From positions 120,001-152,000 of the forward strand of contig JAZDEL010000004.1 of NCBI GenBank assembly GCA_043808785.1: 32,000 nucleotides of DNA. The letters are read 5' to 3'. Below, one piece after another: positions 3,669-31,993 of the stretch. The notes below the pieces were generated by a model, which saw only the letters and a program-made list of their open reading frames with translations, did not search any database and was not told the DNA's origin. Source of the DNA: Candidatus Iainarchaeum sp. Its GTDB lineage: Archaea; Iainarchaeota; Iainarchaeia; Iainarchaeales; JAZDEL01. The position numbers were made by a program, and so were the translations under genes. The first letter of the stretch is position 1. Each line of letters begins with the position of its first letter.

Positions 3669-3734
3669 GTGGTTTCCGCACGCGCGCAAACCATAGGGAT
3701 TAAATACAAAAAGGCATAAAAATGAATGAGAACA

Positions 3735-3890
3735 GGCCCCGTGGTGTAGCCTGGATAGCATAGTAGCTTGCGGTTACTGGAGGGAAGCGAAGGCTTGGCC
3801 CGGCGAGCGAAAGCGAGCCGGTCCGGATCGTCGCCGGATCCCTCCGGCGGCGGAAAGCTGCTGACCGGGGTTCAAATCCCCGCGGGGTCG
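3735..3890 (+). tRNA. tRNA-Arg(GCG) with an intron of about 82 nt after position 37
   Basis: Acceptor GGCCCCG/CGGGGTC. D-arm GTGT-AGCCTGGATA-GCAT. Anticodon stem GTAGC (3763-3767) pairs with GCTGC (3857-3861). Loop is TT-GCG-G [intron 3774-3855] A. T-arm CGGGG-TTCAAAT-CCCCG. Discriminator G. The intron folds internally (ctggaggga/tccctccgg). The exact splice positions were not verified. Confidence 0.7.
3879..3889 (+). repeat. Candidate attL core (inside the tRNA-Arg T-stem/acceptor 3' strand)
   Basis: cccgcggggtc is identical to 15064-15074. Confidence 0.4.
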
Positions 3891-3953: not shown

Positions 3954-5285
3954 ATGGTGGAAGCGAGCATACACAATTACGATAAAAGTTTGGGGCGTTA
4001 CCTTGCCCTGATAAAAGGCGAGCGCACTCTGGACAAGAAGGACAGGCATAAACTGATTTACGCCGAGCCTATTTCGAAAGGCAAGGCGGATTTAATTTTG
4101 GAATACATAGCGCAGCGGGGCAAATTGGGCAAACGGCATTCCACTCTGGAGGTGGATGCAAGGTTCTTGCGCATTGCCGCACAGAAACTCAAAGGCGAGT
4201 TCGACTTTTCGCAGGATAACATGGACAACCTGAACGCCCTTTATGATTGGGCGATAGGGCAGGAGAGCAGGGAGGTTGCGACCATAAACAAATTGATTAA
4301 GGTTTTTCGCGCCTTCGGAACGTGGCACTACAACCGCGACCCGAAGAACAGGGTAAAAATAATGCGCGGGCACTTCCCGCCCTCGCTTTGCGGCTGGCAG
4401 TTGCTCCAAAAGAACGGCAGCATGAGGACGGAAAAAGGTGAGGCTCGGAAGCGGTTGCTTAACGACCCCGACAGCAGGCTGACGCTTGCGGATTACCGGC
4501 GGCTCATACGGGCGGCAGGGAGCGACCAACTGCGGGCCTACTTTGCGCTATGCGCCGATTGCGGAGCTCGGGGAGGAGAAAGCGGGGCGCTTATGGTTGG
4601 CGACATACGCGACAACGCAATAGCCGACCCGAAGCGCCCGTTTCTGGCCGTGCATTTCAGGCGGACAAAGACAGGCAGCGCAAACACCTTGCCCGTGCTG
4701 AACTGCAAGCCGCTGGTGCTGCGCTGGATTGAGAAGCACCCGATTGTGCAGAAGATGCGGGCACGGGGAGAAACCGACTTTTCAAACGTGCCGCTGTTCA
4801 TAAACGGGCGCGGGGCTTGCGTAAAATACAACGGCATTGCAAAAAGGCGCAGGACTGTGTTCGAGGCTGCGGGCATAACCAAGCCGAGCCAAACGCACCA
4901 CGACAGGCGCAGCATTGCGGGGATATATGCGGAACACTTCAGCGACAAGGCGCTGGATGCGTGGTTCAGTTGGAACAGCGGAAAAATGAGCAGCAGGTAT
5001 GTTAAATTTGCGACCGACCAACTCTGGGCGCAATACCTGAAGTTCTACAACAACCCCGAAAACATCCTGCGCAATGTGGAGTGCAAGAAGTGCGGGCGCA
5101 TAGGCATGAATGGCATAGAGGACTATTGTGAGTGCGGCTCGCCCTTTGAGGCAATAACAGTGCTCGCGCCGAAGGGGAGCGACACCGTGAGAAGTGCGGA
5201 GAAACAGGACGCGCTCATGGCGGCACTTGAGGCACTCTCGCGCAAGGTTGCACTGCTGGAGGTTGCCAACCAAAAAGTTATTTAA
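3954..5285 (+). CDS. int: Tyrosine recombinase / integrase
   Basis: 443 aa. Catalytic pattern R (CGARGGESGAL), H-x-x-R (HHDRRSIAGIY) and Y (SSRYVKF). C-terminal zinc-ribbon-like CKKCGRIGMNGIEDYCEC. Starts 63 nt after tRNA-Arg on the same strand. Confidence 0.85.
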   Translation: MVEASIHNYDKSLGRYLALIKGERTLDKKDRHKLIYAEPISKGKADLILEYIAQRGKLGKRHSTLEVDARFLRIAAQKLKGEFDFSQDNMDNLNALYDWAIGQESREVATINKLIKVFRAFGTWHYNRDPKNRVKIMRGHFPPSLCGWQLLQKNGSMRTEKGEARKRLLNDPDSRLTLADYRRLIRAAGSDQLRAYFALCADCGARGGESGALMVGDIRDNAIADPKRPFLAVHFRRTKTGSANTLPVLNCKPLVLRWIEKHPIVQKMRARGETDFSNVPLFINGRGACVKYNGIAKRRRTVFEAAGITKPSQTHHDRRSIAGIYAEHFSDKALDAWFSWNSGKMSSRYVKFATDQLWAQYLKFYNNPENILRNVECKKCGRIGMNGIEDYCECGSPFEAITVLAPKGSDTVRSAEKQDALMAALEALSRKVALLEVANQKVI

Positions 5286-5942: not shown

Positions 5943-6221
5943 ATGATTGTTGCGTCCACGAGTTTTATAAGTGCAGGGGTTTTTTCTACAAAACCCATAC
6001 AGGCAGTTGTGCCACGCCGCAGAGTGTGTGCGCTCTGTTTGAACGATTCGGGAAGGCTTAAGCGAACTGTTTCTCATAAGGGGCAAAAGTTGAATTTCCT
6101 CTGCGGGGCTTGCATGAAAAAACTCGGACGCCCTGAATGCCAGCGGCTTCTTGAGCAATTACCCTTTCATGAAAACCAAACGAATTTTTGCAAAAATAAA
6201 ACCAGCGGAGGCGATGCTTAA
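5943..6221 (+). CDS. Zinc-ribbon protein, paralog of the ORF at 7930-8169
   Basis: RVCALCLNDSGRLKRTVSHKGQKLNFLCGACMKKL has a CxxC...CxxC pattern. Its stop overlaps the start of the Rep gene (TAATG at 6219-6223). Confidence 0.5.
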   Translation: MIVASTSFISAGVFSTKPIQAVVPRRRVCALCLNDSGRLKRTVSHKGQKLNFLCGACMKKLGRPECQRLLEQLPFHENQTNFCKNKTSGGDA

Positions 6222-7933
6222 TGAAGTCCATAACTGAATTAGCCCTTGACCTTTCTGAAGGTTTTTTTATTTTCCGCGACCAATTCGGCGAAACGTTCGC
6301 TATGATAAACTTCGGCGAACATTCTGAATTTTTCCCGCTGCATTCGAAACGATTTAAGGCACACATCGCAGGGGTTTTGTGGCTGCAACATAAAGTATCA
6401 ATCACCCCCGGCGCGTTGCAGGGAGTTATTCTATGTGTGGAGGGAACGTCCCAGAGGGCAGGTTCGCGGTTCTCTTTGCAAACCCGCGTTGCGGAGTGCG
6501 GGGGAAAGTTCTATTACGACCTCTGCGATGCGGAGTGGCGTGTTGTTGAAATTTCCGAGGAAGGCTGGAAAATTACCAACCAGCCGCGCCCTATTTTCAG
6601 GCGCTATTCGCACCAACTGGCGCAGACCGTTTCGGAAACAGAAACGCAGAACCTTGATGATTTTTTGGGAATGTTTAAGATTAGGGATACGGACAAACTG
6701 CTGATTAAGGTTTGGCTGGTGTGTTGTTTTATACCTGACATTCCCCACCCCATATTAGTTCTGCACGGCGGGCAGGGTTCAGCAAAGAGTACCTTTTTCA
6801 GAATGTGCCGCACGCTTGTGGACCCCTCGGCGCTGGCGGTTCTGAGTTTCCCTTCCGATAAAATGGAACTGATTCAGAAACTGGCGCACCACTACTTTGC
6901 GCCGTTCGATAACGTCAGCAGCATCGGGTCGGAGGTCAGCGATGTGCTGTGCCGCGCATGCACGGGCGAAGGGTTCAGCAAGAGAAAACTATACTCCGAT
7001 GACGAGGATGTGGTGTATGCATACAAACGTTGTGTTCTGCTAGGCGGAATTAACATTGCGGCAACGCGCGCCGACCTGCTTGACCGCGCCATGCTGTTCG
7101 GCTTTGAGAGGATCTCAAAAAAACACCGCAAAACCGAGAAGGTTCTCGATAAGCAATTGGAGGCGATGCGCCCGAAATTGCTCGCGGAGATTTTTGGGAT
7201 TATCAGCCGAGCAATGAGCATAAAGCCCGACCTTAAAACGCTCCCGCGCATGGCTGACTTCGGAACGTGGGGAGAGGCAGTCGCCCGCGCAATGGGGGAG
7301 AAGCTGATGGTTTTTGAGGCGGCATATTCCGCCAACCTTGATAAGCAGCATATTGAGGTTGTGGATGCTTCGCCTATTGGGCAGTGCCTACTGGTTTTTA
7401 TTTCCGAAAACTCTGAAGGCTGGCAGGGTTCAGCGAGTGATTTGCTTTCAAAACTTGAGGAGATAGCGCAAAAGGTGAAGATAAAAACAAACGACAAATA
7501 TTTTCCGAAAGCCCCCCACATTCTGATGCGCCGCCTAAATGAAATGAAGGCGAACCTTGAGGAACTTGGGATAGATATAACCTCCGACCATGACGGGAAG
7601 GAGAGGACGGTTCTTGTAAAAAAAGTAATGAAAGAAAGCGTTAGTAGCGTTATAGCGTTAGAAACGCAAGAGATAGCCGAAACGGGCACGAATAAAAAAA
7701 ACGCTACTGAAAAAGTAGCGTTAGTAGAAGCGTTAGCCGAGGGGAATAACGCTACTGAAGTGAAGCGTTCTGAAATAGCGTTAGCCGAAACGGGCACGAA
7801 TACTGCCGAGAATAAGCAAACTAACGCAACTAACGCTACTAACGCTATTCTGCCTACTCCTTTGTATGAAGGGCAGTGTGTTGTGTGGGAACGGGCCGCG
7901 GACGGCAAAGAAAAGCCGAGGTGGATTAAATGA
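6221..7933 (+). CDS. P-loop NTPase replication protein (SF3/D5-like helicase candidate)
   Basis: 570 aa. Walker A-like PILVLHGGQGSAKSTFF, Walker B-like HYFAPFDNVSS, then VLLGGINIAATRADLLDRAMLF (sensor/Arg-finger-like). The N-terminal domain is of the type seen in plasmid/phage primase-helicases. The repetitive C-terminal tail is Ala/Glu/Thr/Asn-rich. Confidence 0.65.
   Translation: MKSITELALDLSEGFFIFRDQFGETFAMINFGEHSEFFPLHSKRFKAHIAGVLWLQHKVSITPGALQGVILCVEGTSQRAGSRFSLQTRVAECGGKFYYDLCDAEWRVVEISEEGWKITNQPRPIFRRYSHQLAQTVSETETQNLDDFLGMFKIRDTDKLLIKVWLVCCFIPDIPHPILVLHGGQGSAKSTFFRMCRTLVDPSALAVLSFPSDKMELIQKLAHHYFAPFDNVSSIGSEVSDVLCRACTGEGFSKRKLYSDDEDVVYAYKRCVLLGGINIAATRADLLDRAMLFGFERISKKHRKTEKVLDKQLEAMRPKLLAEIFGIISRAMSIKPDLKTLPRMADFGTWGEAVARAMGEKLMVFEAAYSANLDKQHIEVVDASPIGQCLLVFISENSEGWQGSASDLLSKLEEIAQKVKIKTNDKYFPKAPHILMRRLNEMKANLEELGIDITSDHDGKERTVLVKKVMKESVSSVIALETQEIAETGTNKKNATEKVALVEALAEGNNATEVKRSEIALAETGTNTAENKQTNATNATNAILPTPLYEGQCVVWERAADGKEKPRWIK
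7637..7850 (+). repeat. Dense direct-repeat (iteron-like) block inside the 3' end of the Rep gene
   Basis: agcgttag occurs 5 times (7637, 7654, 7717, 7729, 7777), plus two near-copies at 7646 and 7763. A 20-nt perfect repeat, agccgaaacgggcacgaata, sits at 7675-7694 and 7783-7802. aacgctactgaa sits at 7700 and 7748. There are 9-nt periodic (a)ctaacgc units at 7821-7848. Confidence 0.6.
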
Positions 7934-8169
7934 ACACCACCCCCCGCCTCGCGCGAGGCACCCGCCCCCACCGCTGCATCGTGTGCGGCGAGCGCGCCAG
8001 CCGCCTGCACGCCCGCCATGACCGTTCGGAGTTGGAATTTTTGTGCGAGGAACATTACCGCCCGTGGCATCCTGACTTAGCCGCCACGCCAAAGCCAAAG
8101 GTGTTCTGGCGCAACCGCTACCGCCTCTCCGCTCTGCGGTATTGGGGAAGAGGGGGGTTTCACGCATGA
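7930..8169 (+). CDS. Zinc-ribbon-like protein, paralog of the ORF at 5943-6221
   Basis: HRCIVCGERASRLHARHDRSELEFLCEEHYRPW aligns with the CxxC..RL....FLC motif of the upstream ORF. ATGA overlap with the Rep stop (7930-7933). Confidence 0.5.
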   Translation: MNTTPRLARGTRPHRCIVCGERASRLHARHDRSELEFLCEEHYRPWHPDLAATPKPKVFWRNRYRLSALRYWGRGGFHA

Positions 8170-8177
8170 GCACAGTG

Positions 8178-8227
8178 CTGAGAGGTGCGAGAGGTGCAAT
8201 GCGCACTGCCACTCTCGCCACTCTCAG
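8178..8227. promoter_or_regulatory. Candidate operator: 50-nt imperfect palindrome built from doubled 9-mers
   Basis: gagaggtgc x2 (8180-8197) faces gccactctc x2 (8208-8225), with outer perfect inverted 7-mers ctgagag/ctctcag. Ends 13 nt before the RHH gene start. Confidence 0.4.
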
Positions 8228-8239
8228 GGGGTGCATGGT

Positions 8240-8563
8240 ATGAAGCGCGTCCACTTGCCCCTTACGGAAGAAGAATACGCCAACATCAAGGCGCTGTCAG
8301 CCAGCATGAGCGAGCGCCTGAACGAGCGCGTTGGCTTCGCGGATGTGGTTTGCAGGGCAGTGGCTTTGCTGGGCGCGCAAGAAAATGCGCTGCATGGTGT
8401 GGTAAAACACAAGCGCGGACGCCCACGGAAAAATGGGGGCAATAAAACAGCGGATTTTGCGAGTAAAAAACCAACCGCACCCTCGCCCTGCACAGAAAAC
8501 GCAGGGCAGGTGCAACAATTCGGAGGTGAAAACTATGGGAAGGAAACCGATAAGCAGGGCTGA
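8240..8563 (+). CDS. Ribbon-helix-helix DNA-binding protein with AT-hook-like KRGRPRK
   Basis: MKRVHLPLTEEEYANIKALSASMSERL shows an RHH beta-strand plus helix pattern. The basic tail carries GRP. Confidence 0.6.
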   Translation: MKRVHLPLTEEEYANIKALSASMSERLNERVGFADVVCRAVALLGAQENALHGVVKHKRGRPRKNGGNKTADFASKKPTAPSPCTENAGQVQQFGGENYGKETDKQG

Positions 8564-8807
8564 GCATGAGCGCAGGCTCGCGCTTTACCATGCAGGCAAG
8601 AGCGATGTGCAGATTGGCAAACTTTTGGGCAAAAAACCAAACACGATTGTGCATTGGAGATACGGAAACAAACTTATCGCCAACTTTACGAACTTTCGCG
8701 GCGAGCGGGCAGGCTTGAGGCGCATGGCGGTTTTGATTGAGCATACAAAGCGGGCGAACAGGATTTATGCGCGCAAGCGTAAGGCGAGGAAACAAAAGAG
8801 GGCATAA
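8535..8807 (+). CDS. Small helix-turn-helix protein with basic C-terminal tail
   Basis: GGAGGTGA at 8523-8530 precedes the ATG at 8535. MGRKPISRAEHERRLALYHAGKSDVQIGKLLGKKPNTIVHWR is HTH-like. The C-terminus ARKRKARKQKRA is basic. Confidence 0.55.
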   Translation: MGRKPISRAEHERRLALYHAGKSDVQIGKLLGKKPNTIVHWRYGNKLIANFTNFRGERAGLRRMAVLIEHTKRANRIYARKRKARKQKRA

Positions 8808-8818
8808 GGGGCGATAAC

Positions 8819-9055
8819 ATGGACGTGATGGAGGTGTTCTATGACGGCGCACAAGTTGTGCTAAAGGTAGAGGTCAATGGCACCCCCATCTCGATACCGT
8901 GGGGCGGGCTTCGCGTAAAGTGGCGCACTGTTGGGAGATGGCACGCCCATTTTATAAAAATGGGGTTGATGCCGCGCGGGCAGTTTAAGCGTACCCCGCT
9001 CTCCGCCCCAAAGAATTTTTTAGGGGGGGTTAAAAAGGTTTTGCAAAAACAATAA
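8819..9055 (+). CDS. Hypothetical protein
   Basis: 78-aa ORF in the same orientation and spacing as its neighbours. No motif recognised. Confidence 0.4.
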   Translation: MDVMEVFYDGAQVVLKVEVNGTPISIPWGGLRVKWRTVGRWHAHFIKMGLMPRGQFKRTPLSAPKNFLGGVKKVLQKQ

Positions 9056-9143
9056 CCCCCCAACCCCGCAGTTATTTTATTGCCGACCTGCAGGTGCAAA
9101 TGTTCGCCGAGCAGGAGGCTCAACGTAAAAAAGGTTTTGTAAA

Positions 9144-9359
9144 ATGGGAAACCAACCGCAAAAAGAGCGTTCAACCTTTACAGCCATCGGCACGGTGCTG
9201 TTTCTTTTTGCGATTTTATTCCGCGAGTTCTTGGTGCACGGCGTTGACCTGTTGTTTGCACTTTTATTTTTAGGGGCGGTGTTCATGGGCACTGGCTCGC
9301 TCGGCTTTTTGCTCAACCGTTTCCACGCACGCGCGGAAAATAGCGAGGTGTCGGCATGA
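9144..9359 (+). CDS. Small membrane protein (two predicted TM helices)
   Basis: Hydrophobic segments FTAIGTVLFLFAILF and LLFALLFLGAVFMGTGSLGFLL. ATGA overlap with the next gene. Confidence 0.6.
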   Translation: MGNQPQKERSTFTAIGTVLFLFAILFREFLVHGVDLLFALLFLGAVFMGTGSLGFLLNRFHARAENSEVSA

Positions 9360-9547
9360 ACTTAAACCCGCTCGCGCTTGGCGCGGTTGTGGCGCTGGCG
9401 TTTTTCGCAGCGGCTGTTGTGGAGCATTTTTTCAGGCAGGATAAAATTGTCGCGGCGCTCATGGATTTGGGTTCGTTCCTTGCAATTGCCGCAATTTTCG
9501 GCGCGGTGTTTGCACTTGCCGCGGCTTACTTGGGGTGGTTGCAATGA
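9356..9547 (+). CDS. Small membrane protein (two predicted TM helices)
   Basis: Hydrophobic segments LALGAVVALAFFAAAVV and LGSFLAIAAIFGAVFALAAAYL. ATGA overlap with the next gene at 9544-9547. Confidence 0.6.
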   Translation: MNLNPLALGAVVALAFFAAAVVEHFFRQDKIVAALMDLGSFLAIAAIFGAVFALAAAYLGWLQ

Positions 9548-11169
9548 ATAACGGAAATTTGCTCGCGGCGTTTGTTCTGCTCGCCGTTCTTGCGGGTGGG
9601 TTTTATTTCGGCTTTTTTGGTTCATTCGGGCTCGGCGCGGTTGCGGACGCGGGAAAGTTTTACCGCCCTGTTTGGGGCAGCGTTGGCTGCGAATTTACAG
9701 GCAGCGGTGCAGGCACCGCGCAGGACAGCATTAAAATTGCGAACGGGAACGCACAGTATTTTTGCAAAGGCGGCTCGTGCAGGGTTGCAAGCATGAGCGC
9801 CGCGTGCGGCGGCGTTCCAGTTTATGAGGGCGGCTCCGCGAACTATGCGCAGGGGTTTTGGGCAAAGGTTTGTGTGGACAATAACCCCGCAAAATGCGCG
9901 ACAGGTAACCAAATTTACAATTTGAAGGCGGCACAGGGCGAAACGCTTTACATCAGCAACGTGCACTGCTATTCTGGTCTTATCCCGCCTTTGGCAAACG
10001 GCACCGCTGGGATTGAATACAGCCCGCTGCAACTTATGCGTTTCCAAGACGGCTCGCGCTTCAATGTTCAGGGCGGCGCAGGCTGCCTGACAGCGGACGC
10101 AAAATATAATTTTGGCAGCATTCAGCCAGTTGCCTCGGACGCGCCGAAAACCGACTTTTGGAAACAGGTCGGCACGGCTTTGTTCGGCGTAAATATTCAG
10201 GGCTACATGGGCGGGGAAACCGCAAAAACTTTCAAGAACACAACTGGCGCGGAATTTCTGAAACTCGGAACTTACCTGCCGTACATTGTTGAATGGAGGG
10301 AGATAATTGCCGGCCTGCACATTTACAAGCCAATCGTGGGCAAGTTTGCTGGCAAAAACATCCTGTGCGACACAGCGCAAACCCGCATTTACGAATTTGG
10401 TTCCGTTAGAACCAGCGGCGGCGCGGCTTACAACATTCCGATAAAAGACTTGGGCGCTGTTGCGTGCTGCAATGACGCGGATTGCGCGCTTGGAAAAATA
10501 TGCAACACTGCGGGCGGAAACTTTGTATGCGAGCAGGCTGCAAGCACATGCCAAAAGGCATGTGCCACCGATTTGGTATGCGGCGGAACATACAGCCACA
10601 AGAACGGCGCGCCAGTATGGACAAAGGGCGAGTGCGTAAATTCGTGCTGTAAATACACGGATTTGCCCGTTGAGTGTGTCGAGGCAAACGATTGCCCAGC
10701 CCGCGATGGCTACACAAAGGAGTGCGACAGCCGCACGCACGAGTGTTTGTACAGTAAAAACGCGGACTACAAAACCGCCTGCGCTGGCGAATGTTGCAGC
10801 GGCAGCGGAAATTATTATGCAAAGGCATGTGCAACTGGTTTGTGCTGCCCCGCTGGCGCGGATGTCGGGGTTTGCAAAGCCTCGTGCAGCGAACTGCCGA
10901 GCAGTTGCGGCGATGGCATTTGCCAACTGGGTGAGCAACTGACCTGCCCGCCAGATTGCCAGCCAAAAACCGAATGCCCGGCAGGGCAGGTGCTTGTGGA
11001 GAAGCACTGGCTCGGCTTGGACTTTATGCCAGCGGTAACGGACATTTTCGGCAACGCGCAGAAGGAATGCAGGGCACCAGCGGACAACGGCCTGCTGATT
11101 GTTGGCGGTGTTGTGCTGCTCGCTGGCGCAATAGTGTTCGCCGCGCTGCTCATGAAAAGGAAGAGGTGA
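9544..11169 (+). CDS. Large type-I membrane protein with Cys-rich ectodomain (candidate envelope spike)
   Basis: 541 aa from the ATG at 9544. N-terminal hydrophobic signal/anchor LLAAFVLLAVLAGGFYFGFF. The C-terminal third is packed with Cys motifs (CCNDADCALGKIC, CVEANDCPARDGYTKEC, CGDGICQLGEQLTCPPDC). C-terminal TM LLIVGGVVLLAGAIVFAALL + MKRKR. Confidence 0.75.
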   Translation: MNNGNLLAAFVLLAVLAGGFYFGFFGSFGLGAVADAGKFYRPVWGSVGCEFTGSGAGTAQDSIKIANGNAQYFCKGGSCRVASMSAACGGVPVYEGGSANYAQGFWAKVCVDNNPAKCATGNQIYNLKAAQGETLYISNVHCYSGLIPPLANGTAGIEYSPLQLMRFQDGSRFNVQGGAGCLTADAKYNFGSIQPVASDAPKTDFWKQVGTALFGVNIQGYMGGETAKTFKNTTGAEFLKLGTYLPYIVEWREIIAGLHIYKPIVGKFAGKNILCDTAQTRIYEFGSVRTSGGAAYNIPIKDLGAVACCNDADCALGKICNTAGGNFVCEQAASTCQKACATDLVCGGTYSHKNGAPVWTKGECVNSCCKYTDLPVECVEANDCPARDGYTKECDSRTHECLYSKNADYKTACAGECCSGSGNYYAKACATGLCCPAGADVGVCKASCSELPSSCGDGICQLGEQLTCPPDCQPKTECPAGQVLVEKHWLGLDFMPAVTDIFGNAQKECRAPADNGLLIVGGVVLLAGAIVFAALLMKRKR

Positions 11170-11173
11170 AAAC

Positions 11174-11506
11174 ATGGCAAAGGCAAAGGACATTTTGGGA
11201 ATGGCGGTTGACCTGCTTGCGTGGGGGGTTCTCGCATTGATGCTGCTTGCTGCAGTGGATTATTTTGTTTTGGGCGGGTGGAACTTGGAAAGCCTTAGCC
11301 TTACTTATTTTGGCAAGGACGTATCGGGTCGTTGTGTGGCTTACTCGCAGGACACATGCAGCACAAACGCCGAATGCACCTCGCATGTGCCATCGGACAG
11401 CGCGGAAAATTCTCTCTGGAAACTAAATTACACAAAAGCGGTTTGCTCAAGCGGGCATTGTTGCATTCCGCGGAATGCAACAATTTTATGGGAGGTGCTT
11501 GACTGA
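11174..11506 (+). CDS. Small N-terminally anchored Cys-motif protein (paralog A)
   Basis: TM AVDLLAWGVLALMLLAAVDYFVL, then CSTNAECTSHVPSDSAENSLW...CSSGHCC. Confidence 0.6.
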   Translation: MAKAKDILGMAVDLLAWGVLALMLLAAVDYFVLGGWNLESLSLTYFGKDVSGRCVAYSQDTCSTNAECTSHVPSDSAENSLWKLNYTKAVCSSGHCCIPRNATILWEVLD

Positions 11507-11814
11507 TGGGGTCGGCTATAAATCTGTTCGGCGTGGCGCTTTTGCTTGTGGTGGCGCTTTTCGTGGTTGATTTGCAGTTTGCAGGCGGGCGCAACGCAAA
11601 ATTGGCGGCAAACTTTGTGCGCGAGGAGATGCACATGAACGAGCCAGCGCCTTTGCGGCAGGGAAATTATTTGGTTTCCGCGCAGGCGTGCACAACATCC
11701 TCCGAATGCCGCGACAAGGTTCCAATGGATGCAACGCCGAGCAATTATTGGCAGGCGCACGCGGGTTTGGCTGAATGCCTGAACCATGTTTGCGTGCTTG
11801 AGGTAAAAAAGTAA
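11506..11814 (+). CDS. Small N-terminally anchored Cys-motif protein (paralog B)
   Basis: TM LFGVALLLVVALFVV, then CTTSSECRDKVPMDATPSNYW...CLNHVC, which aligns with the preceding ORF. TGATG stop/start overlap. Confidence 0.6.
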   Translation: MGSAINLFGVALLLVVALFVVDLQFAGGRNAKLAANFVREEMHMNEPAPLRQGNYLVSAQACTTSSECRDKVPMDATPSNYWQAHAGLAECLNHVCVLEVKK

Positions 11815-11829
11815 AAAGGGGTGTGAAAA

Positions 11830-12087
11830 ATGGCAAAAATGGTTTTACCAATTTTGGTATTGGGCGTACTGGTTGTTGTGGCGCTTGGGCTGGGCGTGTT
11901 GAACTCGTGGCAGATTTGGTTTGCGCCGCATGCGCAGCCAGAACAAGCCGAGCAGCCGCAGGTGCAGCCAGAACAAGCCGAGCAGCCTCATGCGCAGCCA
12001 GATTCAAACGGCTGCGTGCCCTGTGCCATGACCGATGCAAACGGCAACAAGTTAGATACGCTTTGCTGCCCAACGGGGGGCGTGTAA
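11830..12087 (+). CDS. Small N-terminally anchored protein with QPEQAEQP tandem repeats and a Cys-rich tail
   Basis: TM VLPILVLGVLVVVALGLGVL, a repeat linker, then C-terminal NGCVPCAMTDANGNKLDTLCCP. An RBS-like ggggtg lies 7 nt upstream. Confidence 0.55.
   Translation: MAKMVLPILVLGVLVVVALGLGVLNSWQIWFAPHAQPEQAEQPQVQPEQAEQPHAQPDSNGCVPCAMTDANGNKLDTLCCPTGGV
11934..12002 (+). repeat. 30-nt tandem repeat (2.3 copies) inside the CDS
   Basis: gcagccagaacaagccgagcagcc at 11934-11957 and 11964-11987, then partial gcagccaga at 11994-12002. Confidence 0.8.
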
Positions 12088-12090
12088 TTT

Positions 12091-13389
12091 ATGCTTCGTT
12101 TTAGCAAAAACGAAAACTGTGAGGGCGCTCTGGCAGGTGCTTTCACCTCCAAACAAAATAGTACGGGAAAAAACGGCGGCGGTTTTGCCAAATTCTCGCC
12201 GCCCTTTCTCTTTGCAATTTGCCTGCTTGCACTTGCGCCGTTTGCTTTTGCCAGCACGCCGCATTACCTGACTGTTTCGGGCAGGCTTTCAAACGCGGCA
12301 AAAACTTCGTACCTTACGCAAAACCTGAGCACGACTTTTGCGCTTTATGACGCGGCAACAGGCGGCACCGCGCTGTGGTCGGAAACCAAAAACATAAATT
12401 ACGTTGTCGGCACATACAGCACAACCCTCGGCGACACCACGGCGCTCGATTTAAATTTCCGCGTGTCTTACTGGCTGGGCGTCACGGTTGGCGCCGACAG
12501 CGAGATGACGCCGCGCAAGCAATTGGCAAGCGTGCCTTATTCCATGCGGGTGAACGACATAAACGCGATGGGGGATTTGAACCTCACGGGCAAAATTACC
12601 TCGAACGGCAACTTGGTTTTTGCCAAAGATAGCAACATAACCCTCGCATCAACAAAAAGTGCGGACGCTGGCGAATTGATAAAATTGAAGTTCGATGATT
12701 TGACAAACCCAAGCGCGAAGGCAACAATTTCGTGGTACGATGCCAACACGGCGGCAGAAAATAATTCTCCGCAGGCAATCGGCTGGTTTGTTTGCCACAA
12801 TCAATTAGGCAGTGGGGCAACGGCTGTAGTCCATAAACATTGCTCCATCGAAACCAGTTTAGCAGACGGAAGCCCAACTTCAAGGCTCGCCATACAATAC
12901 GGGGTAGACCACGCCAACATAACTACTTATGATTCCGATTTTACGGTTGGGGGCTCAGGCGGAAACTTCAGGGTTGGCGGCACTTCGGTAATGGATTCGG
13001 ATTTGAATGTTGCCACAAAAGTCTGGCTGAACTCCGCGGGCACTGCATCTTTTATCGCCGACCGTGCGGCAACTACAAACTTCTCAAGCCTGATTTTTAA
13101 CACCGCCAATGTGAACCAGTGGACTTTTGGTTTGCGCAATGAAAGCACAAACGACCTGCACCTGCGCGACAATGTGAACCTGCGCACTCCGATAAAAATA
13201 ACCCAGAGCACGGGGGATATTAATTTCAGCAGCAATATACGCGCAAACGATGTTAATTGCTCCGACCTGAACGTCAGCAACAAAACCGTGGTGCGCAGCG
13301 ATGGCAACATGTACCTGACGGACAGTGCGGGGGTACGCTGGAACTGCGGCGTTAATTCGGGCACGGGCACGTTTGCCTGTACCCCATGA
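12091..13389 (+). CDS. Secreted sequon-rich fibre/adhesin-like protein
   Basis: Signal-like FLFAICLLALAPFAFAS. The N-terminal module FALYDAATGGTALWSET...YWLGVTVGADSEMTPRKQLASVPYS resembles a domain common in tail-fibre/adhesin-type proteins. At least 10 N-x-S/T sequons (NLS, NLT, NIT, NNS, NFS, NES, NCS, NVS, NKT). Confidence 0.65.
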   Translation: MLRFSKNENCEGALAGAFTSKQNSTGKNGGGFAKFSPPFLFAICLLALAPFAFASTPHYLTVSGRLSNAAKTSYLTQNLSTTFALYDAATGGTALWSETKNINYVVGTYSTTLGDTTALDLNFRVSYWLGVTVGADSEMTPRKQLASVPYSMRVNDINAMGDLNLTGKITSNGNLVFAKDSNITLASTKSADAGELIKLKFDDLTNPSAKATISWYDANTAAENNSPQAIGWFVCHNQLGSGATAVVHKHCSIETSLADGSPTSRLAIQYGVDHANITTYDSDFTVGGSGGNFRVGGTSVMDSDLNVATKVWLNSAGTASFIADRAATTNFSSLIFNTANVNQWTFGLRNESTNDLHLRDNVNLRTPIKITQSTGDINFSSNIRANDVNCSDLNVSNKTVVRSDGNMYLTDSAGVRWNCGVNSGTGTFACTP

Positions 13390-13398
13390 GGTGTTTGC

Positions 13399-14133
13399 AT
13401 GAAGAAAGCAATAACCCTCTGCGCGCTTATTTGCCTGTGCGCCTTTGCAAGCGCGGCAATGGGCAGCACAAACTATGCAATGGAACTGGAAACAGTTGCG
13501 GGCGGCGGCACGGGCAGCGTATCGGAAAACTACGCAATGGATTTTACGGTTGGGTTTGGTGCAGGCATGAGCAGCACAACTTACAACCTTTGCTGGGGCC
13601 TGTACTGCGATGTGGTGCCCGCGGCTTATGGTGCGGGCACGTTTTCAGTGCAGGCGCCCGGCAGCGGCACACAGGATTATTCGATTGCGGTCGGCAACAG
13701 CGACCCCACAGTTCCGACAGGGAGCATAAAAATAACTTCGACCTGCCCCTCTGCCAACCTGACAACAGTGGGCGGCATTGCAAGCATACCCGCTGGCGGC
13801 ACTGGCGGCATTACTGTCCATGTGCAGGGCACAAACACGGGCGGCATGATTAACTGCGCCTTGAATTTAACAGGCGCGGATTATAACACAACCGTGCCAA
13901 TTTCGCTTTCGGATAACGTCACGAGCAACAGCGGAGCCGTACAGGGCAGCGGCAACGGTGCACCATCGGGCAATGTAGATAACGCGCAGGGTGAGGGCAG
14001 CGGTGCACCGCTGCCGCAGGATAACGGCACGGGTGCGGCGCTTGCGCTTGCGGGCGGCGACACTGACACGCTCCTGCTGCTGGGGCTTTTGATTGTAGCG
14101 CTTGGGGCTGCTTGGCTTTTCTTGGGGCGGTGA
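13399..14133 (+). CDS. Secreted protein with signal peptide and C-terminal TM anchor
   Basis: GAGGTG RBS at 13388-13393. MKKAITLCALICLCAFASA signal. Internal duplicated S-x-NYAM[ED] motif. Sequons NLT, NTT, NVT, NGT. C-terminal LLLLGLLIVALGAAWLFLGR. Confidence 0.7.
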   Translation: MKKAITLCALICLCAFASAAMGSTNYAMELETVAGGGTGSVSENYAMDFTVGFGAGMSSTTYNLCWGLYCDVVPAAYGAGTFSVQAPGSGTQDYSIAVGNSDPTVPTGSIKITSTCPSANLTTVGGIASIPAGGTGGITVHVQGTNTGGMINCALNLTGADYNTTVPISLSDNVTSNSGAVQGSGNGAPSGNVDNAQGEGSGAPLPQDNGTGAALALAGGDTDTLLLLGLLIVALGAAWLFLGR

Positions 14134-14135
14134 AC

Positions 14136-14393
14136 ATGGCGGGCATGGGCACAGGAGAGTATGAAACACTTTCAACGCAAACCATTTTGCTGGAGCCGAC
14201 CTCGTACTCGTATGAGGTTTCCATTAAGCGCCGCATAGGGCAGCGCAAGGCATTCCTCGAAATTGCCCGCCTTGTCAGCGCCGCCAACACCAGAAGAAAG
14301 AATAAGTATGTGCAGATACCCCAACTCTGCTGGAAGGAAGTATTACATACAGCGGCACACCTATGCCGCGAGCATGAGGAACGCAAACAATAA
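14136..14393 (+). CDS. Hypothetical protein (last gene of the + strand operon)
   Basis: ATG 3 nt after the preceding stop; 85 aa. No motif recognised. The coding call rests on position only. Confidence 0.35.
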   Translation: MAGMGTGEYETLSTQTILLEPTSYSYEVSIKRRIGQRKAFLEIARLVSAANTRRKNKYVQIPQLCWKEVLHTAAHLCREHEERKQ

Positions 14394-14491
14394 TCAAACA
14401 TCGTTTGCATGTTTCATTCCTTGTGTTGTGCTCTAATTATTTTTTCTGTCGGTGGGTTTGGGGAAACTGTTTAATAGTTCTAGATTTACCG

Positions 14492-14516
14492 AAAAGCCCC
14501 CCCATGGCTTTTTTAT
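14492..14516 (+). terminator. Hairpin plus T-tract downstream of the operon
   Basis: aaaagcc (14492-14498) pairs with ggctttt (14506-14512) and runs into tttttt. Lies in an AT-rich stretch. Confidence 0.4.
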
Positions 14517-14653
14517 ACATAACATAAGGAGATTAATTATTGCCAAATTAATTATATGTGAACTGCCTGCTCGCTGAGGCGGGAAGGATTCTCCCGTGCC
14601 ATTCCCTGAGTGCCGTATTAATACCGAAGATATTTAATATTAGGGCAGCAAGC

Positions 14654-14797
14654 ATAAAGGGGCGCGGCGGGGATAGGAAAAGCGAGGAGTTCAAAGAGGA
14701 CACCGTGTCCTCTTTGATTGATGATGGTGTACTTACAAGAACAGCGGAAGCCGTTGGTGAAAGCAGCAAAACAATTCAGCGCGCCCGCGCCTATGGC
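14654..14797 (+). pseudogene. Fragment of an HTH protein (GGDRKS...TIQRA type), probably decayed
   Basis: IKGRGGDRKSEEFKEDTVSSLIDDGVLTRTAEAVGESSKTIQRARAYG resembles the N-terminal GGDR[KR]S + HTH region of plasmid/phage ParB-like or regulator proteins. It has no credible start and runs into the convergent AbrB-like gene. Confidence 0.3.
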
Positions 14798-14967
14798 GAA
14801 ACCTTGCCCACCACAACAGCGCCGCCCTTGACGACCCAGCGAATCTTTTGCTTCTCGTCATCCACATGCAAGCCGAGCATCTCGATTGCGAGCCTGCGCG
14901 GGATGGCGGTGCGGAAGAAATGCCTGCCGTGGATTTGCACGGTTGTCGTGCCTTCGAGTGCCCTCAT
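14791..14967 (-). CDS. AbrB/SpoVT-family DNA-binding protein (regulator or antitoxin)
   Basis: MRALEGTTTVQIHGRHFFRTAIPRRLAIEMLGLHVDDEKQKIRWVV fits the AbrB swapped-hairpin pattern. The TATA-like ttataaataaa (complement of 14985-14995) lies about 18-28 nt upstream of this ATG. Confidence 0.5.
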   Translation of the reverse strand: MRALEGTTTVQIHGRHFFRTAIPRRLAIEMLGLHVDDEKQKIRWVVKGGAVVVGKVSP

Positions 14968-15063
14968 ATTTAAGTATTGTGCACATTTATTTATAAGCAC
15001 AAGGCACAGGAAAATAATACATAAGCGCAGTGGTTGGGTATTTGACGCTTTGGCTGTGTATTA

Positions 15064-15074
15064 CCCGCGGGGTC
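15064..15074 (+). repeat. Candidate attR core
   Basis: cccgcggggtc is identical to the tRNA-Arg 3' segment at 3879-3889. The flanks do not match further. Confidence 0.4.
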
Positions 15075-15093
15075 ATTGCGCCATTTCGTAGGT

Positions 15094-15179
15094 GCGCGAA
15101 TTGGCATCAGCCAATTGCGCCCGTTTTGGCTGAGCCAAAACAGGGCGATCCGAAGTATGTGGGCTGCCTTTGGCAGCCC
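15094..15179. repeat. Cluster A of three short GC-clamped hairpins (TTGGC/GCCAA type)
   Basis: gcgc(g)aattggc-atca-gccaattgcgc (15094-15120), gttttggc-tga-gccaaaac (15123-15141) and gggctgcc-ttt-ggcagccc (15161-15179). Confidence 0.6.
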
Positions 15180-15212
15180 GGTAATACGTAAATATTTACG
15201 CCATCAATAGTT

Positions 15213-15566
15213 TCAGACTTCTATTTCTTTCCAGACAAGCTTAATGGCGTTAAAATATTTTTTTGTAAAATCGGCAACCATTTGCGCGGAGAACGGCTTG
15301 CAGGTGTAAGTGTCCACGGTGAACAGCGGCGGTTTTGTCGGGTAGCTGTAAAAGTGCGCGCCCGAAGATTTCCAGTGGATCCAGCCGCCAAAACCCATAT
15401 CGTGGGCTGTGTAAGCAACGGGCTGCTCCAAAACTTCCATGTCAGAAATTTTTGCAAGTTCGAGCAAATAAGCCTTAATCTGCCCAATGCCGACAATTTT
15501 TTCGGTAGTCCCTTCAATAATCATTCTCTGCCTAATTAGACCTGGAGCTAAATTTTCCCACTTCAT
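15213..15566 (-). CDS. S-adenosylmethionine decarboxylase-related (pyruvoyl-type, SpeH/SpeD-like) protein
   Basis: From MKWENLAPG. GFGGWIHWKSSGAHFYSYP...LFTVDTYTCKPF resembles the (E)SS self-cleavage region and the VD.F(Y)TC motif of the small AdoMetDC family. Confidence 0.5.
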   Translation of the reverse strand: MKWENLAPGLIRQRMIIEGTTEKIVGIGQIKAYLLELAKISDMEVLEQPVAYTAHDMGFGGWIHWKSSGAHFYSYPTKPPLFTVDTYTCKPFSAQMVADFTKKYFNAIKLVWKEIEV

Positions 15567-15659
15567 CAAAATCAAAAGCCGCCAAAAAGTTAAAAAAACT
15601 ACTTTACTTGCAAACACGCCCACAAAAGGAATAAATACAACTTAGCACATTTTAGTTTC

Positions 15660-17109: not shown

Positions 17110-17285
17110 TCCAGAACCCCATAGAACTAACCGCCGCGTTGTATTTAATCCTTTTGTTGGCAGGGCGTTGAATGCCTGAACCATCAAAAAGCATAATTAG
17201 GGCGGGTTATTTATTTGTTCAACGCCCTGCGGGGTTTTTTGCGGGGTTTTGGCGCGGGTTTGCACGGGAGGGTTTGCCTGCCGCT

Positions 17286-24997: not shown

Positions 24998-25088
24998 GCC
25001 CCGATAGCTTCAGCTGGGAGAGCGCCACCTTGGTATCGCTTCTATGCCAAAAAGGTGGAGGTCCCGGGTTCGAACCCCGGTCGGGGCT
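24998..25088 (+). tRNA. tRNA-Thr(GGU) with a 17-nt intron after position 37
   Basis: Acceptor GCCCCGA/TCGGGGC. Anticodon stem CCACC/GGTGG. Loop is TT-GGT-A [intron 25036-25052] A. The anticodon region ttggta pairs with intron tgccaa (BHB-compatible). T-arm CCGGG-TTCGAAC-CCCGG. Confidence 0.75.
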
Positions 25089-31129: not shown

Positions 31130-31993
31130 TTGTCCATGGTTTTCTGGTTCGATGTTTCGGCGCTGCACCTTGTGCAGCAGTTCGCGAACCCGCTGCTGGA
31201 CATTTTCTTCCTCGCGGTTACCGAACTCGGCAACCCGCTGTTCTGGCTTTTCATTGCCGCTTTCATTTACTGGCAGGGAAAGGAGGACGATTCCTTTTTC
31301 ATAGTGAACCTCATTACATTCAGCGCGGCCATAAGCGGCATGCTGAAATTTGGGGTTGCAAGGCCGAGGCCCGATGCTTCGGAGTTCAGGGTTATTGCAA
31401 GGGGCATTATGATGCACTCCTTTCCGAGCGCGCATGCGACGCTTGCCGCGTCCGCTTACGGCTATTTTTCCGCGGGGTCGAAAATATTGCGCAGGCTTGC
31501 GCTTGCGCTGCTTGTGCTCCTTGTGGCGGTTTCACGCATTTACCTCGGCGCTCACTTCCTCACGGATGTGCTTGCGGGCTTGCTGATAGGGTATGCGATA
31601 GGGAAGGCGAACTTCCTGCTTAAGCAGAGGCTGAAGGGCGCAAAGTTCCGCCTCACTAAAATCGGGGACGAGCTCGGGCTTGTTGTTGCCGTGGCTGCCG
31701 CTGTTGCGGCGATTGTTTTCGTGCAGCCAATGAGCATCGCGCAGGGCATCTTCGGCTTCTATGCGGGGTTCTTTGCATTCAAATACTTCGGCCAGCCGCA
31801 GTGCGGCGGGAAATGCATGCATCCCGCGCTTAAGCACGGCATAGGCGCGATAGGGCTGTGCGCGCTTGTGCTGCCCGCATATTCGGGAATGCTCGGAAAC
31901 GCCCTGCTTGACGGCTTGCTCTATTTCCTTGCGGGATTGTGGATAAGTTTCCTCTGGCCGCTACTCAGTTCGGGAATACGCCGAAGGGAATAG
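31130..31993 (+). CDS. PAP2-family lipid phosphatase
   Basis: KFGVARPRP (KxxxxxxRP), FPSAHA (PSGH-like) and SRIYLGAHFLTDV (SRxxxxxHxxxD), with multiple TM helices. Confidence 0.8.
   Translation: MSMVFWFDVSALHLVQQFANPLLDIFFLAVTELGNPLFWLFIAAFIYWQGKEDDSFFIVNLITFSAAISGMLKFGVARPRPDASEFRVIARGIMMHSFPSAHATLAASAYGYFSAGSKILRRLALALLVLLVAVSRIYLGAHFLTDVLAGLLIGYAIGKANFLLKQRLKGAKFRLTKIGDELGLVVAVAAAVAAIVFVQPMSIAQGIFGFYAGFFAFKYFGQPQCGGKCMHPALKHGIGAIGLCALVLPAYSGMLGNALLDGLLYFLAGLWISFLWPLLSSGIRRRE

Follow-up and report, generated by a model that had tools for sequence, protein, structure and literature searches.

A Cys-rich membrane protein with predicted anchors at both ends and its surface-protein operon in an integrated element of a Candidatus Iainarchaeum chromosome

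Few viruses and mobile genetic elements (MGEs) of non-halophilic DPANN archaea have been described, and they come from metagenomes only. The canonical module of pleolipoviruses consists of VP3, VP4, ORF6, ORF7 and an AAA+ ATPase (VP8); spindle-shaped viruses are recognized by a small hydrophobic hairpin major capsid protein (MCP), often two of them adjacent, a tyrosine integrase, a large adhesin gene and an AAA+ ATPase (bioRxiv 10.1101/2025.02.15.638363). The element Altivir_3_ACLF was defined by matches to CRISPR spacers of Altiarchaeum and was considered by its authors to be a putative virus without hallmark genes (PMC8324899). In this work a stretch of 32,000 nucleotides (nt) from Candidatus Iainarchaeum sp. 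was analyzed (contig JAZDEL010000004.1, positions 120,001 to 152,000 of the forward strand; this whole stretch is called the window, and coordinates given without a contig name refer to it). It carries a genomic island in a Candidatus Diapherotrites (Iainarchaeum-like) chromosome, and at 9144-11169 the island encodes two mini-proteins and a Cys-rich membrane protein of 541 amino acids (aa). It is a solid conclusion that these three genes open the membrane and surface-protein operon of an integrated mobile element. Such a setting agrees with the interpretation given in an earlier note made from the sequence alone (the original prediction), and is borne out by a tRNA gene, an integrase gene and a phage-like helicase gene upstream.

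The three genes and the family of the 541-aa protein

Mini-protein A (9144-9359, +, 71 aa) opens the operon and is followed by mini-protein B (9356-9547, +, 63 aa) and by the 541-aa protein (9544-11169, +), which founds an undescribed family. ATGA overlaps join A to B (9356-9359) and B to the large gene (9544-9547); the open reading frame (ORF) list and the printed sequence agree with the original prediction in all of this. The topology of all three proteins was predicted from hydropathy only (Kyte-Doolittle scans). Mini-protein A, with basic N- and C-termini, has hydrophobic helices at approximately residues 13-31 and 29-47+, and mini-protein B at residues 4-22 and 41-59, so that each is predicted to be a two-helix membrane hairpin. 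The hydrophobic segments of the 541-aa protein are confined to residues 6-24 (N-terminal transmembrane (TM) segment or signal, nt 9559-9615) and 517-535 (C-terminal TM, nt 11092-11148), the latter followed by KRKR, and the protein is thus predicted to be anchored at both ends. Between the anchors lie the conserved motif YRPVWGSVGCE (residues 40-50), a beta-rich N-domain (residues 36-307, nt 9649-10464) and a Cys-rich region (residues 308-480, nt 10465-10983). Thirty of its 38 Cys fall within residues 275-480, and the three Cys motifs quoted previously were all found. The proposed topology, namely two 2-TM mini-proteins and a large protein with N-terminal anchor, Cys-rich part, C-terminal TM and KRKR tail, therefore stands as far as hydropathy can tell.

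The large ORF is certainly coding, because it is identical to NCBI protein V1676_03825 (from a Candidatus Diapherotrites metagenome-assembled genome (MAG), 200-kb contig) and has homologues down to E = 1e-74. Its 541 aa are counted from the ATG; an alternative GTG start at 9535 is possible. The 523-aa antisense ORF at 9622-11193 is a shadow ORF.

No homologue of A or B was found in Pfam, PHROG, NCBIfam or PDB, or in comparisons with the fetched viruses and relatives, and no paralogy between A and B was detectable. Both were accepted as genes because of their translational coupling, the GAGGTG Shine-Dalgarno (SD) motif before B (which precedes nearly every gene of the island), their hairpin topology and the analogous mini-ORFs of Altivir_3. 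The gene for mini-protein A has no SD motif and is possibly leaderless. A sub-threshold Saf_2TM match of mini-protein B (E 0.059; 13.7 bits, cut-off 29.5) was dismissed as a reflection of TM composition. A 20-nt direct repeat, GT(T/A)AAAAAGGTTTTG(C/T)AAAA, occurs at 9029-9048 and 9125-9144, the copies being 96 nt apart, and the second abuts the ATG of the gene at 9144, the sole operon gene lacking a GAGGTG SD. A third, weaker copy is found at 11811-11830, before the gene at 11830. This repeat may serve as promoter or operator for a transcript that lacks a leader.

The 541-aa protein had no sequence match in Pfam, PHROG, NCBIfam or PDB. When 1.84 billion cluster representatives were scanned exhaustively with HMMER, 12 other proteins were obtained, nine of which were full-length relatives (558-655 aa, E 1e-74 to 2e-7). 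Members of the family share an N-terminal TM, the sequence YRPVxGSIGCE just after it, a beta domain of ~270 aa, a CC-x4-C junction, a Cys-rich region and one or two C-terminal TM helices. The Cys-rich region has ~20 invariant Cys, and the alignment contains 24 invariant columns, mostly Cys. In Pfam none of the ten family members rose above the curated cut-off, NCBIfam likewise gave no match, and the family profile found nothing among the PDB sequences. A motif scan of the 185,579 species-representative genomes of GTDB revealed no relative, although a single-motif scan has limited power. An S-layer or adhesin family, which the original prediction had named as the identity that would speak against it, was accordingly not matched in Pfam and NCBIfam (ten members), by the PDB profile or in the GTDB motif scan.

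Further searches were made with varying success. A word-indexed search for homologues gave back the query only, both for the single protein and for the family profile; Cys-rich words had probably saturated the candidate list. A contig look-up by the exact product of the 541-aa gene likewise yielded no record. Searches of IMG/VR with the 541-aa protein, its family, the fibre and the helicase of the island gave nothing, and two family loci were found in JGI metagenomes. A tblastn search of 50,697 records of phages and archaeal viruses gave a single match, gene 8 of Altivir_3_ACLF. Four weak phmmer matches in PDB (E 0.1-0.7), all archaeal pilins, involved residues 6-73 of the 541-aa protein. They were not reproduced by the family profile, the alignment shows no conserved class III cleavage motif, and the matches of the N-terminus are probably an effect of composition.

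The product of Altivir_3_ACLF gene 8 (DAZ85516.1, BK059157.1) aligns end to end with the 541-aa protein (pairwise E 3e-9) and matches other family members with E 2e-17 (P0003's gene) and 9e-13. It has nearly the same length (542 aa) and the same plan: an N-terminal TM, a YFGG motif, a V-x-CCND-x-x-C junction, a Cys-rich C-terminal third and a C-terminal TM. Four mini-ORFs, each with 2 to 3 TM, lie upstream of it. The two proteins are, however, only ~24-26% identical, and the two elements have no further gene in common. Altivir_3 also differs in being a free linear contig with 32% guanine plus cytosine, the host of which, Altiarchaeum, was assigned by CRISPR spacers; its gene 8 is annotated as 'hypothetical'. 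The locus ties a rare unannotated family to a Diapherotrites host chromosome with a clear integration context and to a CRISPR-targeted Altiarchaeum element.

All relatives for which a contig was fetched are located on contigs of ~2-54 kb that contain little but ORFans, the majority on one strand. Doubly anchored proteins with a Cys-rich ectodomain, small polytopic proteins and very basic small proteins present in several copies are abundant on these contigs. Recognizable genes are few: D12 methyltransferase, a transglutaminase-like protein, YdjM, a HerA/DUF87 ATPase, and Cas1 with a TnpB-like gene; the 54-kb contig (L016) also encodes a Sak4-like annealing protein and a SNF2 helicase. PHROG scans of the large neighbours in the related loci detected no capsid or portal protein, the only matches being Sak4 and SNF2 (L016) and a weak terminase-like match of the DUF87 ATPase. 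The terminal-repeat test for circularity of the related contigs was negative. As far as can be seen from sequence comparison, the Altivir_3 gp8-like Cys-rich, doubly anchored proteins make up a rare undescribed family that is found almost only on virus-like mobile elements. The family and its predicted fold were absent from every library searched; the DPANN virus and MGE catalogue of Wu et al. 2024 may include some of the related contigs, their products probably being labelled hypothetical. A surface or envelope glycoprotein module of a mobile element is, as a kind, already known.

Several features of the related contigs were recorded in passing. In L016 the family gene P0007 (10001-11677) lies between genes for giant surface proteins (1129 aa with a weak FG-GAP match, and 1572 aa with DUF2341) and a block of tiny ORFs, which is followed by the SNF2 helicase and the Sak4-like protein; this element is much larger and virus-like. 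In L002, which carries a family member, YdjM, Cas1 and a Cas12f/TnpB-like gene are grouped at the contig end (14586-17750, -). In contigs L002, L005, L006, L008 and L017, two families of small, very basic proteins without a Pfam match are encoded in multiple copies, for example at 13350-13640 and 14417-14803 of L006, 4859-5206 of L005 and 11053-11271 of L017. One of these families has the N-terminal motif KGWxGExxRHRxAxxKG and the other a GKRRKVxVKK core; a function in condensing the genome is possible for both. The family member P0008 (L017, 2729-4531) carries after its TM an SR/RR-rich tail of ~40 aa (…PRSYSPQRRYSQPRRASPRRYSSKPKRRYYYK), which by analogy resembles the arginine-rich nucleic-acid-binding tails of viral capsid proteins.

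Comparison with pleolipoviruses, spindle-shaped viruses and fusogens

The order and topology of the three genes had been said to mirror those of pleolipoviruses. Pleolipoviridae do have one or more small membrane protein genes directly upstream of a type-I membrane protein of ~520-570 aa, and include small temperate elements that integrate in archaeal genomes. On this basis the island could be a pleolipovirus-like provirus, with the mini-proteins as VP3-like matrix proteins and the 541-aa protein as a VP4/VP5-like fusion spike, and its gene order and size resemble those of HRPV-1 and HHPV-1. The resemblance does not extend to sequence, profile or fold. Alignment of the family profile with the spikes HRPV-1 VP4, HRPV-6 VP5 and HHPV-1 VP4 using hhalign gave a probability of 0.1% over 13 aligned columns, and the pleolipovirus spikes compared share no invariant Cys, in contrast to the 38 Cys of the 541-aa protein. 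Pleolipoviruses have one VP3, which is conserved, ~132 aa long and unrelated to the mini-proteins, whereas two proteins of ~65 aa are encoded here. Homologues of the VP8-like ATPase, ORF6 and ORF7 were not found in the island, phmmer of all island proteins against the ORFs of HRPV-1, HRPV-6 and HHPV-1 giving nothing at E < 1. No Walker-A ORF lies downstream of the large gene; the sole P-loop-like motif in a long ORF belongs to the 570-aa helicase/primase homologue, which has no PHROG match. Foldseek comparison of two structure models, described below, with solved structures, which should include HRPV VP5 if deposited, gave no significant match. Because of the profile probability of 0.1%, the unrelated VP3 and the missing Walker-A ORF after the large gene, membership in the pleolipoviruses is very improbable, and the analogy drawn in the original prediction was not supported.

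This gene order is also not diagnostic of pleolipoviruses because it occurs in the spindle-shaped virus His1, in which VP21 (73 aa, 2 TM) is followed downstream by VP27 (505 aa) with a signal peptide and a C-terminal anchor. In His1 (VP21 and VP27) and SSV1 (VP1/VP3 and the end-filament protein VP4), hairpin proteins of 63-92 aa are likewise encoded beside a large anchored or terminal protein. Spindle-shaped viruses further resemble the island in their tyrosine integrase, tRNA-linked integration and genomes of 10-20 kb. A fusello- or halspivirus-like provirus would account for the pair of hairpins, the tyrosine integrase and the large adhesin-like gene, which belong to the published signature (bioRxiv 10.1101/2025.02.15.638363). 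In it A and B would be alpha-helical hairpin MCPs, and the 541-aa protein would serve as a particle-anchored adhesin of the tail or terminus. The sizes of 71 and 63 aa and the two-helix hydropathy of A and B fit spindle MCPs. The other signature gene, for the AAA+ ATPase, is absent from the island, however. No sequence similarity was detected between A or B and VP21 or SSV1 VP3, or between the 541-aa protein and His1 VP27; A and B are not detectably paralogous, and Pfam and PHROGs are silent for both. The integrase gene is intact here, as opposed to the split gene that results from integration of the SSV type (the att site of SSV1 lies inside int). We judge a spindle-shaped provirus to be unlikely.

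The structure of the 541-aa protein was predicted with AlphaFold2 from an alignment of ten sequences. The full-length model had a mean pLDDT of 68 and a pTM of 0.46, with values mostly between 70 and 90 for residues 40-400, which are almost all beta; apart from the two TM segments, it contains no helix other than two short ones at residues 183-207. The N-domain modelled by itself reached a pLDDT of 79.5 and a pTM of 0.67, confidence in both models being medium. With neither model (pLDDT 68 and 79.5) did Foldseek find a match of E < 0.01 in PDB or BFVD, and the best alignments were to generic beta-sandwich or jelly-roll proteins that were small targets (TM score <= 0.46). At the level of these predicted models, the comparison proposed in the original prediction thus gave no significant match to a pleolipovirus spike, a HAP2/Fsx1-type protein or any class I-III fusogen. 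The central coiled-coil or heptad-repeat helices of class I and the domain set of class III were found neither in the model nor by Foldseek, and the three-domain class II fold of Fsx1 likewise had no significant match in PDB or BFVD. With Fsx1 and HAP2 the modelled protein would share a beta-rich, disulfide-containing ectodomain, a C-terminal TM and the setting of an integrated element of an uncultivated archaeon. It differs in having one beta domain and a Cys-knot stalk in place of the three class II domains, and in the lack of a Pfam match. Since no fold relationship to VP5, Fsx1/HAP2 or class I-III fusogens was detected, fusion activity stays pure hypothesis.

A bolder proposal is that the gp8-like proteins are entry glycoproteins, combining receptor binding and membrane fusion, of an unrecognized lineage of small enveloped or lipid-containing viruses of DPANN archaea and Altiarchaeota, and that the island is its first integrated (temperate) member. 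As sequence and predicted fold match no class I-III fusogen, VP5 or fusexin, this would imply a new structural class of membrane-fusion protein. We hold it to be distinctly improbable.

Display on a particle or on the cell

A displayed or envelope-type role of the 541-aa protein is plausible because its relatives were found only on virus-like contigs or contigs of MGEs, among them a putative archaeal virus targeted by CRISPR spacers. To this extent the proposed function in attachment or membrane fusion was partly supported; for fusion, no fold relation to known fusogens emerged. The most likely explanation, at about even odds, is that a temperate virus-like particle carries the protein on its lipid membrane for recognition or entry, and that the hairpin mini-proteins are partners embedded in this membrane. 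In such a scheme it would be inserted co-translationally and would expose its beta-rich domain of ~270 aa and a disulfide-knotted stalk of ~170 aa on the outside, the C-terminal helix and KRKR tail holding it in the lipid bilayer. As a glycoprotein displayed by a temperate, lipid-containing virus-like element, it would then recognize the host or mediate entry, and the two hairpins would be co-assembled structural partners in the membrane. Location on a virion, receptor binding and any fusion activity are postulated properties of the protein. A virus-like particle is suggested because one relative is targeted by CRISPR, virus-type genes lie beside another, tiny basic proteins abound in the related contigs and P0008 has its SR/RR tail. 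Judging by sequence comparison, the 541-aa gene is the one island gene in common with rare uncultivated virus-like elements of DPANN and Altiarchaeota-type environments.

The same operon could instead be cell-surface cargo of an integrative plasmid or island, in which case the host cell would display the 541-aa protein together with the fibre and the small anchored proteins, and no virion would be formed. Possible roles would be adhesion in an episymbiotic DPANN lifestyle, mating or cell contact for transfer, and superinfection exclusion. A C-terminal TM followed by a basic tail is a standard archaeal cell-surface anchor, and one related contig encodes a HerA/DUF87 ATPase, a type also used in DNA transfer systems. 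The gene of the secreted fibre-like protein (12091-13389, +, 432 aa) bears on this point as well. Its C-terminal part is unique, and its N-terminal ~120 aa are common to 'tail fiber domain-containing' proteins. For this N-terminal quarter 48 homologues were found, some with PF13884, in Planctomycetes, Omnitrophota, Patescibacteria and Diapherotrites (another MAG), and a match to the NCBIfam family Bdello_MAT_N (N-domain of the Bdellovibrio MAT fibre) was seen at E 9e-5, below the cut-off. The occurrence of this N-domain in MAT-like and 'tail fiber domain-containing' fibres of Planctomycetes, Omnitrophota, candidate phyla radiation (CPR) and another Diapherotrites MAG fits a cellular location. 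Points against cell-surface cargo are the failure to find the family among the GTDB species representatives (with the limited power of the single-motif scan noted above) and its occurrence elsewhere only on short ORFan contigs. One relative is located on a CRISPR-targeted element and another beside virus-type genes (Sak4/SNF2), and the several tiny, extremely basic proteins of related contigs suggest genome condensation. We rate cell-surface cargo as the main rival, possible though somewhat unlikely.

Display on a virus-like particle has its own difficulties. Using Pfam, PHROG, NCBIfam and ORF inspection, neither a capsid or portal gene nor a packaging ATPase nor any further hallmark of virions was detected in the island, a result which also favours cargo on the cell. 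No other island gene is common to any fetched virus or relative: comparison of the remaining genes with the relatives' loci, His1, SSV1, HRPV-1, HRPV-6, HHPV-1 and Altivir_3 revealed none shared even at E < 1. Altivir_3 itself is called only a 'putative virus', lacking hallmark genes (PMC8324899). For the island, neither evidence of excision nor a convincing att repeat was found. Finally, the operon could dress the cell and not a particle because the N-domain of the fibre is also present in cellular fibre adhesins of bacteria and CPR.

With either location the 541-aa protein is a concrete candidate surface or entry protein for a new group of elements, and the locus is a small testable operon encoding two hairpins, a spike-like protein, a pair of small Cys proteins and a fibre. 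If virion-borne, the protein would be an archaeal envelope protein without a known fold relative; if located on the cell surface, it would imply that mobile elements remodel the surface of episymbiotic archaea.

Integration context, remaining genes and borders of the island

An intron-containing tRNA gene is located at 3735-3890 (+), with an intron of ~85 nt and the anticodon GCG (Arg) as read by eye. It scored 35.3 bits (E 7e-6; gathering score 29) in a permissive Rfam scan and was missed by ARAGORN and by the Rfam gathering scan. This tRNA is probably the integration target and would mark the attL side of the island. The gene of the tyrosine recombinase/integrase (3954-5285, +, 443 aa with a C-terminal zinc finger) begins 64 nt downstream of it and is intact. 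The integrase was identified with Pfam Phage_integrase (27.4 bits; cut-off 27.1) and PHROG 1 integrase (E 1.8e-16).

A replicative helicase/primase-type protein (6221-7933, +, 570 aa) has a Walker-A-like GGQGSAKST motif and is similar to gp37 of Microbacterium phage Zeta1847, annotated as DNA helicase/primase (tblastn E 1e-25, 74% of the query). It is followed at 7930-9055 (+) by four small putative regulatory or DNA-binding genes with SD motifs of the GAGGTG type: a CxxC protein (7930-8169), a small gene at 8231-8563, a helix-turn-helix (HTH) gene (8433-8807) and a basic 78-aa protein (8819-9055), all on the + strand. A weak HTH_38 match (E 0.001) was obtained among them.

The operon itself extends over ~5 kb (9144-14133) on one strand and is tightly packed, several gene pairs overlapping or abutting, and all genes except the first have a GAGGTG SD. 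Downstream of the 541-aa gene are two paralogous genes (BLASTP E 4e-6) with GAGGTG SD, at 11174-11506 (110 aa) and 11506-11814 (102 aa), both on the + strand, the products of which are small, Cys-containing and N-anchored according to hydropathy. The next gene (11830-12087, +) encodes an N-anchored protein of 85 aa with a Cys-containing tail; three tandem units of 30 nt at 11925-12014 code for its PEQAEQP-type peptide repeats. After the fibre gene, the last clear operon gene (13399-14133, +) encodes a 244-aa protein with a signal peptide, an immunoglobulin-like/Gly-Ser-rich region and a C-terminal TM anchor predicted from hydropathy, for which no family match was found in Pfam, PHROG or NCBIfam. 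The ~1 kb following it (14134-15210) contains no convincing ORF and includes the attR candidate described next.

The right border was approached by comparison with a related Ca. Iainarchaeum MAG (hisD 85% identical). Because collinearity between this genome and the window is restricted to the part right of 17398, the island must lie between the tRNA and at most ~17270. The element would thus start at ~3891 and end between 14133 and ~17270, giving a size of roughly 10-13 kb. A weak attR candidate is found at 15064-15074 (+), where 11 nt (CCCGCGGGGTC) repeat the 3' end of the tRNA; it would imply an element of ~11.2 kb; with ~0.4 chance matches expected in the whole window and a second copy at 31470, it is not statistically convincing. 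When direct repeats of the att type were sought that link the tRNA/integrase end with 13-18.4 kb, only 11-nt matches at chance level were found. The ORF at 15213-15623 (-), considered as an AdoMetDC-like host marker of the right border, was dropped for lack of support from Pfam, NCBIfam or PDB. No match to the plasmids of PLSDB was found.

Inverted 13-nt copies of GGATTAAATACAA, which is similar to a B recognition element (BRE) and TATA box, occur at 3695-3709 before the tRNA and at 17139-17151 before small ORFs of the minus strand; strong host promoters are a more probable explanation for them than ends of the element. A second intron-containing tRNA with a 19-nt intron was identified at 24998-25088 (+), which ARAGORN reported as 'tRNA-???' and Rfam scored with 45.9 bits.

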